Origin: Octopus vulgaris
Lineage: Eukaryota
Reading direction: 5' to 3'
Length of the DNA stretch: 64,000 bases
Assembly (NCBI GenBank): GCA_951406725.2
Contig: OX597818.1
Location: forward strand, 73,160,001-73,224,000
In this document: positions 9,177 to 61,518 of the stretch, piece by piece
How the letters are laid out: every line of letters begins with the position of its first letter
Numbering within the stretch: position 1 is the stretch's first letter
Translations under genes and position numbers: made by a program
The notes under the pieces: generated by a model
The model's input: the letters and a program-made list of their open reading frames with translations, nothing else
Databases searched by the model: none
What the model was told of the DNA's origin: nothing

Positions 9177-11575
9177 TATTATTATTATTATTATTATTAT
9201 TATTATTATTATTATTATTATTATTATTATTATTATTATTATTATTAACAACATCAACATCATCGTTATCATCACTTTCATCGAACATGTGTTGTAAGCG
9301 ATTATTCTGTGAAGCAATGACTGACCTAGATTTGTAATTTATCATGTTTTAAGTGAACGCCATCTTTCCAAGATCCCCAAACACTTTATCTAAACAAGAA
9401 TGCATTGATTCATATCAGGTGTCGTTTAAAAGTAAGCTATAAAACGTTACATTAAAATTTGCTGATATATAACATATCAATTAATAATTATGAGGTCGAG
9501 CTAAAATAAAATCGAATTATTATTATATCAGATAACAAAACAACAGCGTAATTGTCTCAGTTTGAATATGTCCCAACTGAACACAGGGGAAAATATTTGT
9601 TATGCAAATATGTCGAGCTACGTATAGCAAAAAAATACTAAGGCCCAAACTGCAACTTCAGTATAGTCCGTATCATATTTCGCATCAATGTGCCAAATAG
9701 CTTGTAACAGTTTTCGAAGTAAATAATATTTCACTTTCACTTGTCCACTTTAATCATAAAAAAAAACTTTGTACGTATCAACAGTTTTTGGCGTATATAT
9801 ATAGTAATTTAAAGCGTCGAAGATGGAAACTGTATGTCCCTGAACAGCTCGCTGAAAATAGCAAGGGAGTGACACTCTCCTAATGTCTTTATAAGGAGAA
9901 GAGAAAGACAAGTGTATTTACGTCATTGTTATTCTGGATACAATAATACAAATACAAAGTGATCTATTTAAACCTGTTGGAATGTAAGATTGCTGCGTCA
10001 AAGATTACCTGGGATTAAACAGCAGCAACAAGATGGAGAAATATATGCAAACTCCATGGAATACAGGTGTTCTAGGGAATGCATGGACTGTAAGAACTCC
10101 ATGGATATTTAAACTCCATAGGATGTAATTGCTCCATGTAATCCATCTGTTTGAAGTTTTATATGACTACTCGCACAATATTTTATTGTGTAATTCAATT
10201 ATATATTTTAAATAGCAAAGCATTTGCAATTTTGTACAAAGTGATTTGGATTTTTTATATAGAAATGAATAAAATTTCTTCTTACAATATTTCTCCTCGT
10301 GTAGTAGGAATATGAAAAAAACTTTTCTGGAATTTAAAAAGCATCCAAATAATAAATGTGCCTTGTGTGAAAATCGAACACTGAAATTAACTTCAGGCAC
10401 TTGAAAGTGTTAATCAAATTCACCAGTCTAGAATGACCTGTGAAGTCCTTCCTCCACGCACAACATGTAAAGACAAAAATATAGTTTTGGTTAAAGGGGA
10501 GAGAAATCATTATGTAAGTAACTATCTGTAACATGAGTTTTTTAAAACATATTCCTGCTAGTTCAATTGTTATTCCCTCTTATCTCTGCACTGATAAATT
10601 AATTCCATTGTCAAAGAAGTTCTTGCCTCTATTATTATTTAATCTTATTCTTCGGACGTAGTAGTTATTGATTATGATTTCTCAACTTTCGGGTTACAAA
10701 TTTTCTGCTGTAATACATTACCTTTGGATTTATTAATTTTGAAAACTTAATAACAAACACGTATGTATTAAGATGACGTTTGGAATACCAATTAACATGG
10801 AATGTTGATGGGTGATTTACTTCAGGTTATTATAAAAGAGGAAATTTGAATCTTATTACTCGGGGAAGTCACAGACGGATTGGTATCGTAAGTGTTAAAG
10901 ATGTTATAATTTTGAGAGATATATCCTTGTTACTACTATCATGTGAAGTGATCACGATGTCTGTTTAAATCTACATCTAATCTGCACACTTAACTCTGAA
11001 CCCATACATACATCTGTCATATCTACAATAGATCTAAAATAACACTCTAAGGAATAATACATAAATGTTCTATCCCGATTCAAAATTACTTCACACATAC
11101 TTTATTTTATTTTATTACACTTGGGATAATTATTCACTTTACGGTGTCATCAAATACTTCTTTGCTTGAAATGAAAAAAAAAAACTGAATTTTTTATTAT
11201 TATTATTTTATCTTGTATTAAGTGTACTTTAAGCTCTTTCACACAGGTGAAAGAAGCACACGTGGAATATACTGTCAACAATACTGACAATGATATAACT
11301 GGTACTAGTTTTAACGACAAAACAAAGATGCCACGCAAAGACGTTCAGTAATTATAAAATATTGACAGATTTGTTTTTATTCCAGATGAACAATTGTTCA
11401 AGCTTCCAGATAGTGTCCTGCATTCTTATATGTTACAATATATTGTATATATTTATGTATATATATGCATATATATATATATATATATATATATATATAT
11501 ATATATATATATATATATATATGTATATTTGATTAATGAGAGAGACGGAAGATGGAAGATACGAGAATGTTTATT

Positions 11576-11690
11576 GTCTGTTGCAGTTGTTTCGACGCAT
11601 CTAACATCAATCAGTTACGGGCTGGGATACTGAGCATCTGGTTTGGGTGTATCTGTCAGTTGGTATAGATGTGTCTCCTCAGTTGATTAC
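11576..11690 (-). ncRNA. Degenerate type I hammerhead-like motif with long stem II
   Basis: CUGAGGA-gacacaucua...uagaugcguc-GAAA-caacug; stem II 9/10 paired; stem I and U16.1 degenerate. Confidence 0.5.
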
Positions 11691-13120
11691 AAGATGTATC
11701 TCGTTAAAATAACACCTGTTCCGCAAGATTGTTTCTCAGTATGTATATGCAAAAGCAACAAATTAAGGAATACAACTTCATTATTATAGAAGATTAATAA
11801 CAAATATCAGATGCAAAAATAAATCCCAAGAAACAAATACACAATTATTAGTAGATATGGAATAATACATAAATATCCTAACCTATTCAGAATTACTGCT
11901 CACATACTTAATCTTACTTCATCATTCTTCAGACATAATCATTCACTTGACGATGCCATCAAATTCTTCTTTGTTTGAAATGTAAAAACTAAATTATATA
12001 TCTTGAGAAATGGAGGCTAGACGGGTCGAAAACATTCTAGTGATCAATATTCTCTTCCATCTCTCTCATTAATCAAATGCCAAACGAACACTGAGTAAGT
12101 GAGCGTGTTTTACGGTAAACTATCAGGTACGTACTGTACTATTTATTAACTAATAATAATAATAATAATAATAATAATAATAATAATGATAATGATAATA
12201 ATAATAATAATAATAATAATAATAATGATAATGATAATAATAATAATAATAATAATAATAACAACAACAACAACAACAACAACAACAACAACAATAACAA
12301 CAATACTAATAATAATAATAAACTTTTCCACTGAAACACGAGGTCTCGAATTTGGGGGTGGGATTAAGTCGATTACATCGACAGTTAACAATTAAACATG
12401 ATAATTGTCGATTCCATCGACAATTAACAATAAAACACGATAAATATAAAAAGAAATATTGTTATAATATCGTTGCTGGGTCTAAGCTTAAGGAATTGAC
12501 CAAACTTAATGTTAGTATAAGAGGGAAATAGTTAGAAAAGGAAGTAAAGTAGTTAAATTAAATAATGAAAATTAGAAAAGTTTTTAAAATACATATCAAA
12601 ATATAATATAATATACATGAATTGAAAAGTGAGCAGACAGCTGAAGATATCAATATTAAACCAACGGATCGTCTTGAACAAAAGTACATAGATATCTATA
12701 TACGCATATGAGTGTACATATGCATATAGATGCATATATACTCTCATATAATCATATTCACATACACACATACAGCGTATAAATACGCGTAAATTGACAC
12801 ACACACATATTTACACACTCGCACATATTTACACACACACATTCACACATATAAATATATATGCGTACATACAAATATGCATTTATACATACACATTCGC
12901 ATGCTTACATATTCATCTTACTTACATATGTGTAGATTATAAATATATATGTACTAAAATCATACACGCACAGACCAATATAAATGCAAACAAACCTGCC
13001 TCTTTTACAATTTTATATATCCATCCCTGAAATTAAACAGATATGTTTACGTATATATGCATACGCATTAGAATAACGGTATATATATATATATATATAT
13101 ATATATATATATATATATAT

Positions 13121-13224
13121 AACGGGAAGGTTTACGAAAATGAACAAAATACGAAGGCAGGTGGAGTACAAACAAACAAATGTATTAGTATGGCGCTCAG
13201 GAATAGAAATAGGACAAGTCTTTT
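13121..13224 (-). mobile_element. 3' tail of the minimal-HHR non-autonomous element, abutting (TA)n
   Basis: Similar to 39430-39520 and 51868-51956. Confidence 0.6.
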
Positions 13225-60072: not shown

Positions 60073-60094
60073 CCATATATATGTATATATATAT

Positions 60095-61070
60095 ATATAT
60101 ATAACTGAGAATGTGTGTGTGTCTGTCTGTCTGTATGTTTCTCTAAAACTTGAGAACTACACTACCAATTTCATTCAAATTTTACACATGCCTTACTTAG
60201 AAAATGTTCAACTTCTTGCCTAGGGCGAGCCCATAGCAATATCATATTTTCTCCACTATTTCAGTATTACGTGTTAAAAGTGAAACAAAAACATTTCTCT
60301 ATTTTATGTCAGATACTTTCATTTTAACAATAAAAATAATAATAACAATTGAATTATATGAAGTAAGTACTAATTAAAATCAAACTAAAGTATAATATAA
60401 TCGTAACATAACAAAAGTAAAAACAGCAGTTGGTATAAAATTGCATCAATGACATGCACTTGAATAAGTGGTTTCACATGAATGGGAATAAATTTAAAAT
60501 AAAATTACCGTGCAGAAATGGAATAGTCCAGATGTATAATAAAACGTTAAATTAAAGAAAAGTCTATTGTCTATAAAGTATACAATGTAGAGAAAAAAGA
60601 GGATTTGAACACATGGAGGAAAGCACCATCGAAAAGTGTCTTGGTGCGACTATGAAAGATATCTAACCAGAGGCGGTAAATTCGCCACAATAGAAGCAAG
60701 GTTCGAGTCAACGTGCGAGGGAGTACTCGACTCGAACTTGCAAAGTGGAAAAATTTTATTTTTACCTTTTTATCTGGGACGAAGGACGTGCCGGATAAAA
60801 ATTAAAAATGCCCCCCACCCAGAAGTTTAGGTAGGCTGTATTGTAGCCACATTTCTATACATCGAAATTGCAAGAGACGGGCTTACAATTCCAGTCTGTT
60901 ATATATTTTGTGTATTGTTATCACTAGCGATATCAAAATATAACTTTGCATTTTGTATTTTATGTGTAGATGTATATATATAGATGTACATGTAATATGT
61001 ACACATATATATATACACATATATACATGTACTAGCACTATGACCCGGCAACGACGGGTCATAATGCTAG
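60095..61070 (+). mobile_element. Non-autonomous Helitron-like element
   Basis: 5' part with tgtgtgtctgtctgtctg microsatellite; 3' GC-rich hairpin gacccg...cgggtc followed by CTAG|T. Confidence 0.6.
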
Positions 61071-61134
61071 TATATGTATATATATATATATATATACATA
61101 TATACATATATACATACGTATATATATATATATA

Positions 61135-61518
61135 ATTTAATAAGGGTAGAAATTGATATTAATCAATTAAAACCAGTGTCCTAGCATATTAAAAAAAATC
61201 CGAAGCTTAAAATATTTTTACATACAAAATTTAAAGGACTGACCTCTAAAAGTGGACGGTCAGCATGCTAGATATAGACGTCAAAAACGCTATTTTCCAC
61301 AAAGAATGCGTTCTCAAAAAAAAAAAAAATATCAGCACAAACCAAAGCATTAAAAATAAGCAAGACAAATGAAAATATACGAAATAAAAATGATTACCTA
61401 TGTCCCGATCAGTTTCGATTGTTAATATCTACGCATATGGTTACATGGAAATCTGCAATCTCATTAGCATAGTCTGTCATATAGAAATACAATTTGCAGG
61501 ACTAGATACAAAAACGTG
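61135..61518 (-). mobile_element. Non-autonomous element between (TA)n tracts carrying an HHR relic; related end at 63870-64000
   Basis: agggta.aa...atcaatt.aaaccagtg.cctagcata shared with 63872-63911. Confidence 0.6.
61398..61472 (-). ncRNA. Mutated type I hammerhead motif (core CUAAUGA)
   Basis: cuaug-CUAAUGA-gauug...caauc-GAAA-cugaucgg-GA-cauag; perfect 5-bp stems I and II; G5 and U16.1 altered. Confidence 0.6.

Follow-up and report, generated by a model that had tools for sequence, protein, structure and literature searches.

What are the hammerhead-like motifs that lie beside (TA)n microsatellites in the 64,000-nucleotide stretch of Octopus vulgaris DNA analysed here (the window), and how did they come to be there? 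All nine motifs that a first-pass annotation had placed between 11.6 and 61.4 kb are present at those positions; its density of one motif per 7 kb conceals an uneven spacing, six of the nine being clustered within 11.5-26.3 kb. Judged from sequence, eight of the nine qualify as type I hammerheads (HHRs), genuine or decayed, and the one at 11.6 kb is doubtful. We consider it probable (roughly 0.78) that the motifs represent 3' ends (3' UTR or pseudo-LTR) of several families of Penelope-like elements (PLEs), with the single copies as decaying passengers.

A strict descriptor, compared with 30 local dinucleotide shuffles of the window only, gave two matches with a score of at least 9 (20.3 and 23.2 kb) against a shuffle mean of 0.17. 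A relaxed descriptor that took no account of (TA)n, though it was tuned post hoc on motifs already seen, gave eight matches in the window, the best seven of which are seven of the nine noted motifs. At a score of at least 10 it found four matches against a mean of 0.03 in 100 shuffles (maximum 1), and at a score of at least 6 seven against 0.99 (maximum 4), while the reversed window sequence gave no match. The earlier description of type I HHRs with a palindromic stem III is upheld. The minimal motifs at 25.1, 39.5 and 52.0 kb score only 6 and do not exceed chance by descriptor alone; they are lifted above it by family evidence. The 26.2-kb motif was missed by the relaxed descriptor, yet its CTGAAGA is intact, its stem II measures 9 bp and a GIY-YIG remnant precedes it upstream. 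The heavily decayed 11.6-kb motif (11575..11620, minus strand) was missed by both descriptors; its core carries an insertion, a clear stem II is lacking, and (TA)n lies about 50 nt away. Damage to core or stems is seen in most of the nine copies: CUGANGA is unchanged in only three (18.6, 23.2 and 26.2 kb) and the core is altered in six, and the minimum-energy fold of most motifs is not the hammerhead. No hammerhead was among the best 150 of 156 Rfam matches to the window at E ≤ 1, and the matches listed were microsatellite-driven and miRNA-like only. This result would suit chance look-alikes in AT-rich repetitive DNA, as would the three motifs that score like occasional shuffled matches under a post hoc descriptor and the missing stem II at 11.6 kb. 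However, the four strong matches, the recurrence of the placement after an endonuclease in four of four relatives, the stems retained in the 39.5/52.0 family consensus and a strand-specific (TA)n association make this reading very improbable, and it is largely refuted for all motifs but that at 11.6 kb.

The attribution to PLEs, already proposed in the first-pass annotation, is borne out by three motifs (18.6, 20.3 and 26.2 kb), each of which follows a Hydra-like GIY-YIG remnant on its own strand. In sequence, these remnants resemble the Hydra clade of PLEs, which is defined by a CxCX5C linker and the absence of CCHH. For this clade, HHRs, (TA)n insertion (marked for 26 of 27 listed families) and an Octopus member, Hydra-1_Obim of Octopus bimaculoides, were already published (Craig et al. 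2021, PMC8557442). The best preserved ORF, PLE-A (20567..21535, minus strand), is 5'-truncated and stop-free over 322 aa, and comprises the RT end, the thumb, a CxCX5C linker (C171, C173, C179) and a GIY-YIG endonuclease with CxxC (C274/C277) and CxH (C305/H307), which flank the conserved E280 and N296. It lacks CCHH, the cysteine pair being absent inside the GIY-YIG core. We assign PLE-A provisionally to the Hydra clade because CxCX5C, CxxC and CxH are present and CCHH is absent; a Neptune identity for the GIY-YIG ORFs was rejected, their linker and endonuclease agreeing in motifs with Hydra instead. The N-terminal RT region in which the RWK and DKT motifs of the clade would lie is missing from the truncated copies. 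The Pfam GIY-YIG match of PLE-A (E = 0.02) fell below the cut-off. It has 70 homologues, the long ones of which carry an RT core upstream of the C-terminal endonuclease. Compared by eye, its RT end is identical to the translated Hydra-1_Obim consensus at 35 of 45 residues, and both share SCHPP where at least 90% of 29 aligned relatives have N. Its Hydra-type HHR (20310..20372, minus strand), with a U4C core, a palindromic stem III and a 6-bp stem I, lies about 195 nt past the stop and about 30 nt ahead of (TA)28; PLE-A thus has the HHR in the 3' region and the terminal (TA)n that mark the clade.

PLE-B (19153..20233, minus strand), a decayed and frameshifted Hydra-like linker and endonuclease with a long CA/CT-rich 3' UTR, begins at the (TA)28 that ends PLE-A. 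Its HHR (18611..18690, minus strand) has an intact CTGATGA, a long stem II and a self-complementary stem III, with (TA)n 214 nt downstream. Sequence comparison also identified PLE-C, a Hydra-like endonuclease remnant (25454..25876, plus strand) with an inverted linker piece at its 5' end (5' inversion; 25300..25467, minus strand) and an HHR (26208..26262, plus strand) with intact core, decayed stem I and (TA)n 99 nt downstream. In a fourth Hydra-like remnant, the very decayed PLE-D (29151..30198, plus strand), no HHR was recognised. A broken PLE-type RT remnant (50310..50965, plus strand), putatively Neptune-like by its motifs, is not linked to any HHR; no homologue of it was found among longer proteins or in the related loci examined, and its only matches were to eukaryotic clusters without a name, in one of which 15% of the members carry HTH_animal. 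Among relatives of the Hydra-like ORFs, a CTGANGA..GAAA motif follows the protein match by 83-203 nt in four of four loci. No Hydra relative was found among 320 stretches of viral contigs. The Hydra-like elements of the window share with the published Hydra clade an HHR at the 3' end whose palindromic stem III is extended, CxCX5C without CCHH, CxxC, CxH, (TA)n insertion and 5'-inverted copies (PMC8557442). They differ in that PLE-A carries U4C, that all window copies are truncated or decayed and that the HHR sequences are not that of Hydra-1_Obim, which points to distinct families. The combination of PLE, HHR and (TA)n is therefore already known for the Hydra clade, and the window adds new families to it. 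Naiad/Chlamys PLEs have an N-terminal endonuclease and no canonical HHR, whereas the elements here combine HHRs with a C-terminal endonuclease.

By their extended palindromic stem III, five HHRs are classed as Hydra type (18.6, 20.3, 23.2, 26.2 and 61.4 kb), two of them in non-coding carriers. The first of these (23166..23226, minus strand; intact CTGATGA) lies in an element (23033..23540, minus strand) that ends at (TA)16 and whose 130-nt 3' tail recurs inverted at its own 5' end with 87% identity in a masked self-BLAST; 5' inverted pieces thus occur at two places (23.0-23.5 and 25.3-25.5 kb). The second (61398..61472, minus strand) has G5A and U16.1G changes and is presumed dead; its carrier (61135..61518, minus strand) has (TA)n on both sides, and a second 3' end lies at 63880-64000.

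The HHRs at 25.1, 39.5 and 52.0 kb have the minimal architecture, with an extra base after A9, G10.1-C11.1, a palindromic 15.2-16.2 and no loop 3. Their cores depart from the consensus CUGANGA, by U4C at 25.1 kb and by A6U at 39.5 and 52.0 kb and in the family consensus, CUGUYGA. The 25.1-kb motif (25106..25136, plus strand), with a 4-bp stem II, is preceded by CA-rich and CT-rich tracts and has (TA)n 114 nt downstream. The first U6 motif, identified by descriptor and family consensus (39516..39549, minus strand), lies in a non-coding element that spans about 630 bp and is flanked by (TA)n at either end (39431..40059, minus strand); the second, found by descriptor and alignment (51952..51987, minus strand), lies in a copy of about 500 bp (51867..52362, minus strand) with 71-78% identity and a different 5' end. 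Alignment also revealed a 3'-tail-only relative that runs to (TA)21 (13122..13224, minus strand). In this single case, noticed post hoc, the homology begins a few bases from the predicted cleavage site. Inverted arms at 21.5-21.7 and 22.1-22.3 kb were considered as extra U6 hammerheads and rejected, the alignment being a hairpin without a core, and dimers formed by neighbouring HHRs of different families were discounted on visual comparison, since the stem III palindromes differ.

The U6 family comprises about 10^4 copies. Summed depth at its HHR is 305k-449k (X1) and 369k-679k (X4), against 64 (X1) and 37 (X4) for a near-exact single-locus contig. It gave 691 and 281 records in two runs; these are contigs that may be DNA and are not evidence of expression, and no accumulation of molecule ends was reported among them, a feature that contigs would not reveal. 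Published minimal HHRs, as far as the parts of the source drawn on here describe them, are for the most part solitary and dispersed, stem from truncated PLEs, include some inverted pairs, and share with ours the extra base after A9, G10.1-C11.1, the lack of loop 3, a palindromic ACGU and a short stem I (Cervera and de la Pena 2014, PMC4209133). Those parts give U3-A8 as a core variant and do not mention A6U, whereas U6 is here the consensus of a high-copy family. No ORF is attached to any minimal HHR of the window, and no autonomous partner was found for them; the same layout stands beside a Neptune-type endonuclease in metagenome locus L011, where a CX4CxxC linker and GIY-YIG lie upstream. 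Lunse et al. 2017 is reportedly a further source on the minimal HHRs of metazoan PLE pseudo-LTRs. With a pattern that left the first core bases free, 120 matches were obtained in the host DNA of metagenomes (L003-L122), 58 of them with C[CT]GANGA. These Neptune-type pseudo-LTRs share the GAGC-loop-GCTC GAAACGU layout and have U4C in 28 of the 58, but differ in that U6 occurs in none of the 120 and (TA)n lies downstream in only one of 58. Viral contigs gave no match to the U6 pattern, and two hammerhead-pattern matches there were rejected as chance, lying within coding-like sequence.

The claim that most carriers end at or in (TA)n is upheld against background. Within 300 nt downstream, a cut-off picked post hoc, (TA)≥5 is present in eight of nine motifs, compared with a background of 0.198 (binomial p = 1.7e-5); with 150 nt the count is 5/9 (p = 0.001), and with descriptor-found motifs only it is 6/7 (p = 3.5e-4). 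Upstream (TA)n, CA/TG runs and TAA runs, used as controls, each gave 1/9. For the ninth motif (52.0 kb), the end of the element aligns with that of the 39.5-kb copy and consists of a TA tract that is short and degenerate. Since (TA)≥4 lies downstream in only one of four related Hydra loci and one of 58 minimal-HHR metagenome loci, the link to TA is not general; and since SINE-like repeats in the octopus window also adjoin (TA)n, it is not specific to PLEs. Target-site duplications are unreadable within TA repeats, and the tract might have been synthesised as a tail instead of being an insertion target.

The most plausible reading of the non-coding carriers is that they are 3' ends of PLEs with a 5' truncation, or pseudo-LTRs, rather than retrozymes, because none is in a tandem array. 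With non-LTR retrozymes they share type I HHRs, a non-coding nature in animal repeats and descent from PLEs, but the copies here are neither tandem nor canonical (PMC7229834; bioRxiv 10.64898/2026.07.22.740005). Spread through circular RNAs from active hammerheads would accord with HHRs in short non-coding repeats, with the solo monomers known for retrozyme families and with the start of the 13.1-kb tail-only copy. It is nevertheless quite unlikely: just three of the window's 88 TRF arrays have a period of at least 30 and none overlaps an HHR, the core is altered in six of nine motifs, and the architecture is minimal or Hydra type, lacking, by eye against the published description, the loop 1-loop 2 contacts of canonical type I HHRs. 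The term 'retrozyme-like' in the first-pass annotation is accordingly not supported, with none of nine motifs in a tandem array. A more serious alternative, which we regard as possible though on balance doubtful, is that the carriers form genuine non-autonomous families of a SINE-like kind, which have source genes of their own and are moved by PLE proteins in trans. The great abundance of the 39.5/52.0 family, the TA flanks on both sides of several carriers that are ORF-free over 400-630 bp, and the non-autonomous PLE derivatives known from the literature speak for it. On the other hand, the two window copies are unequal in 5' extent, depth drops about 1000-fold toward 39812 (divergence contributes too), and a long CA/CT-rich 3' UTR is equally found in the ORF-bearing PLE-B.

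For the preferred origin as PLE 3' ends, we hypothesize that the element's GIY-YIG endonuclease would nick (TA)n and that the RT would start copying the RNA 30-270 nt downstream of the HHR, each insertion consisting of HHR, tail and (TA)n. The ORF would mostly be lost by 5' truncation, at times leaving an inverted 5' piece; that the non-coding copies arose by truncation is what we infer, and the 39.5 and 52.0 copies differ at their 5' ends. In intact tandem source elements, the HHRs would probably cut as homodimers via the palindromic stem III and define where the RNA ends, and the single copies of the window would be their decaying passengers. TA preference and dimer cleavage are taken from the literature, and an internal RT start has been published for a Poseidon element only. 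No HHR in the window is attached to a full-length element or an RT catalytic core.

The A6U core is possibly new, as no description of it was found in the literature searched. A natural change at the same position is the A6C of the phage Bcep176 hammerhead, for which low Mg2+ activity and a preference for Mn2+ were measured; it differs in being C not U, at a single phage locus and not in a dimeric minimal HHR (PMC3088659, PMC7151607). Because changes at A6 give low hammerhead activity in published assays, the U6 fold may be slow or non-catalytic. Stems I and II are retained across divergent subfamilies, and the fold is the part most common to subfamilies with differing flanks. A tentative and rather unlikely interpretation is that selection maintains the U6 fold in these PLE-derived families of about 10^4 copies, where it would serve the PLE protein as an RNA signal that does not cut, or act as a deliberately slow ribozyme that depends on dimers or ions.

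The main finding is mostly of annotation value, since the clade to which it adds families had been reported from Octopus before; it suggests that PLE ends may account for many of the 'unclassified SINEs' in octopus repeat libraries. Of potentially wider interest is the successful U6 family: with its predicted crippled core, it stands beside intact-core families in the same genome, which permits a direct comparison of cleavage and of insertion 5' ends. If the U6 fold is indeed kept by selection, it would provide a natural test of whether Penelope mobilisation needs hammerhead cleavage.

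In this AT-rich animal DNA, which holds many microsatellites and retroelement remnants, all nine type I hammerhead (HHR)-like motifs claimed by the first-pass annotation were present (11.6, 18.6, 20.3, 23.2, 25.1, 26.2, 39.5, 52.0 and 61.4 kb). Part of the 14.0-23.6 kb region also occurs in sequencing runs from four organisms. A strict descriptor recovered those at 20.3 and 23.2 kb at a score of at least 9, against 0.17 per shuffle. A relaxed descriptor, which ignores TA and was adjusted post hoc with the motifs already known, gave eight matches, the best seven being 18.6, 20.3, 61.4, 23.2, 25.1, 52.0 and 39.5 kb. 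With this post hoc descriptor, the motif frequency exceeded that of shuffled sequence, with four observed vs 0.03 at a score of at least 10 (100 shuffles) and seven vs 0.99 at a score of at least 6. It did not recover the 26.2 kb motif, which has an intact core, a 9-bp stem II and a decayed stem I, or the 11.6 kb motif, which has an insertion in the core and is doubtful as an HHR. The hammerhead was absent from the best 150 of the 156 Rfam matches listed. The core is unchanged at 18.6, 23.2 and 26.2 kb, and carries U4C at 20.3 and 25.1 kb, A6U at 39.5 and 52.0 kb, and G5A with U16.1G at 61.4 kb. Stem III of the better motifs is self-complementary, with a predicted homoduplex of -5 to -10 kcal/mol for 18.6, 20.3 and 61.4 kb. 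A direct repeat (11048-11179 and 11856-11988, 72%) brackets both the 11.6 kb motif and the nearby (TA)n and may be a decayed tandem pair. Two copies (69%) of a further family lie at 17873-18090 and 37939-38155; at 38110-38175, a 5-bp stem and GAAAC, followed some 130 nt further on by a TA-rich tract, are possibly a decayed tenth HHR. A short family has inverted copies (73%) at 28517-28618 and 32795-32896, with CTGAAGA at the edge near 32880, for which no GAAA partner was recognisable.

Four Hydra-like remnants of Penelope-like elements (PLEs) were located with a profile of 29 aligned relatives (28 of 70 homologues and the query): PLE-A (20588-21553, minus strand), PLE-B (19153-20110, minus), PLE-C (25454-25870, plus, with an inverted piece at 25300-25467, minus) and PLE-D (29151-30198, plus). 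As had been proposed, three HHRs lie downstream of GIY-YIG ORFs on the same strand, namely 20.3 kb (PLE-A, about 195 nt), 18.6 kb (PLE-B, about 460 nt) and 26.2 kb (PLE-C, about 335 nt). PLE-A has the CxCX5C linker and the CxxC and CxH motifs and lacks CCHH, and these are the marks of the Hydra clade (PMC8557442). PLEs of this clade bear HHRs and nearly all insert into (TA)n, 26 of the 27 families listed in the supplement being so marked; Hydra-1_Obim of O. bimaculoides is listed with both (PMC8557442), and the reverse transcriptase end of PLE-A, matched by hand, is identical to it at 35 of 45 residues. This close match, together with the repeat types, suggests that the host is an octopus. In related loci, the hammerhead core follows 83-203 nt past the protein match in all four, and (TA) of at least 4 units follows the core in only one. 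The HHR/PLE set of the window is a known system with new families. The giant squid has 235 Rfam hammerhead matches (PMC6962438), and the 2026 O. vulgaris annotation puts the PLE families with recent activity at 31 and the SINE families without a classification at 893, its text, as available, making no mention of ribozymes (PMC13282606). Inverted arms (70%) at 21528-21728 and 22123-22323, between the truncated 5' end of PLE-A and (TA)59, have T-rich tails pointing outward, like PLE ends, and form a hairpin with one compensatory change; as hammerheads they were rejected, the core not being intact. Animal Hydra-type PLEs with HHRs also occur in four bacterial genome assemblies, most likely as contaminating host DNA, and two of these (L123 and L126) seem to continue into a second ORF in tandem.

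The association of the HHRs with (TA)n is real and directional. A (TA) run of at least 5 units lies within 300 nt downstream of eight of the nine motifs (distance 32-269 nt), vs a background of 0.198 (0.26 for the 10-30 kb region), so the enrichment suggested earlier was borne out. Upstream, (TA)n was found for one motif in nine; for CA/TG and for TAA runs the count was likewise one in nine each. At a 150-nt cut-off, the downstream count is 5/9, and 3/7 for the descriptor-found motifs (p=0.03). Other repeats in the same genome also adjoin TA, and (TA)n may be an insertion target or a tail, both of which fit the window data. At 18400-26400, PLE-B, PLE-A, the inverted-arm element, a SINE-like repeat, the 23.2 and 25.1 kb elements and PLE-C are chained via TA tracts, which points to TA runs as insertion hot spots.

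The remaining carriers are non-coding. The 23.2 and 61.4 kb motifs are of the Hydra type, with an extended palindromic stem III and no ORF, and the 23.2 kb carrier has a copy of its 3' tail inverted at its 5' end, a known PLE structure. The 25.1, 39.5 and 52.0 kb motifs fit the definition of minimal HHRs in PMC4209133, where such motifs are described as mainly single copies of truncated-PLE origin, weakly active even as dimers. A metagenome pattern scan that left the first core bases free yielded 120 loci, spread over 21 of 64 parts, with CTGANGA in 30, CCGANGA in 28 and other cores in 62; U4C is thus a common natural state of the minimal layout. Among the 58 CTGANGA or CCGANGA loci, GIY-YIG together with a CX4CxxC linker lies upstream in one (L011), another (L012) has an endonuclease-like end by eye, and one has TA downstream, the flanks being short in part of them. 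These metagenome loci (L003-L122) are a high-copy minimal-HHR repeat in host DNA, with U4 and C4 about even, and several have an inverted copy adjoining the core. None of the nine window motifs lies within a tandem array, so the label "retrozyme-like" is not supported, retrozymes being defined by tandem arrangement (PMC7229834; bioRxiv 10.64898/2026.07.22.740005). We favour, at roughly two to one, truncated PLE ends over self-standing non-autonomous elements as the origin of the non-coding families, and both may be present. For truncated ends, the endonuclease would nick (TA)n, reverse transcription would begin a short distance downstream of the HHR, 5' truncation and inversion would often follow, and neutral decay would come last; in tandem sources, the HHRs would cleave as dimers, as described in the literature. 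Internal initiation is demonstrated, in the text available, for one Poseidon element only (PMC11167929).

Other repeats include a young 550-bp repeat (94-96%) at 1580-2126, 8624-9176 and 42842-43376, flanked by (AAT)n and adjoining LINE remnants, and an older copy at 2205-2630. Remnants of LINE reverse transcriptases (Pfam RVT_1, zf-RVT) lie at 5918-7054 (minus), 42294-42835 and 44420-49762 (plus), several of them arranged in tandem and tailed by (AAT)n. A SINE-like family, with TA/TG tracts both inside and beside its copies, occupies 558-686, 3146-3430, 22837-23000, 23702-23890, 27174-27561 and 61714-62117. The broken ORF pieces at 54700-56030 resemble a DNA transposase remnant, and the one piece scanned had no Pfam match. 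Self-inverted, MITE-like sequences lie at 26496-26933 (65%) and 49928-49999 (78%).

The 39.5 and 52.0 kb elements (the U6 family, core CUGUYGA) share 71% over about 400 nt and a common 3' end. The U6 core was found in none of the 120 metagenome loci, in a pattern with the first core bases free. Lunse et al. 2017 reportedly deal with PLE hammerhead variants. No description of a U6 PLE hammerhead was found in the titles, abstracts and text passages covered; the supplements of PMC4209133 and bioRxiv and the Lunse et al. 2017 alignments might contain one. Contigs of four sequencing runs aligned to 39431-39812 at 80% likeness gave 2542, 2945, 691 and 281 records. Summed depth in the HHR bins was 305k-449k in X1 and 369k-679k in X4, vs 64 and 37 for near-exact locus contigs; this depth ratio, which is no true copy number, places the family at about 10^4 copies in order of magnitude. 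The family changes, A>G at 39513 (96%), G>A at 39533 (93%) and A>G at 39522 (21-57%), restore a standard HHR layout. The A6 state requires T at plus-strand 39543, where no change appears among those listed (all but 14 rows); A>T occurs at one place only (39597) in X1, X13 and X16, and at one more in X4, outside the changes listed. Consensus sequences of loose ends (34 and 6 records) again have U6, followed by C or U at N7, and A6 may account for up to 15% of copies. The HHR depth is several-fold that of the neighbouring bins 39574-39612, and loose ends accumulate at 39510-39516 and 39549, which indicates an HHR common to subfamilies with unlike flanks; a second peak of similar height (39626-39664) means that it is not the sole shared block. 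In published assays, activity is low when position 6 or the CUGA turn is altered, though A6C still cleaves, better with Mn2+ (PMC3088659, PMC7151607, PMC9901934). A tail-only relative (13122-13224, a single case noted post hoc) begins approximately where cleavage is predicted, which would fit the copying of cleaved RNA and speak against full inactivity. A possible but less probable reading is that the U6 fold is kept by selection, either as a non-cutting RNA signal for the PLE protein or as a slow ribozyme that depends on dimers or ions.
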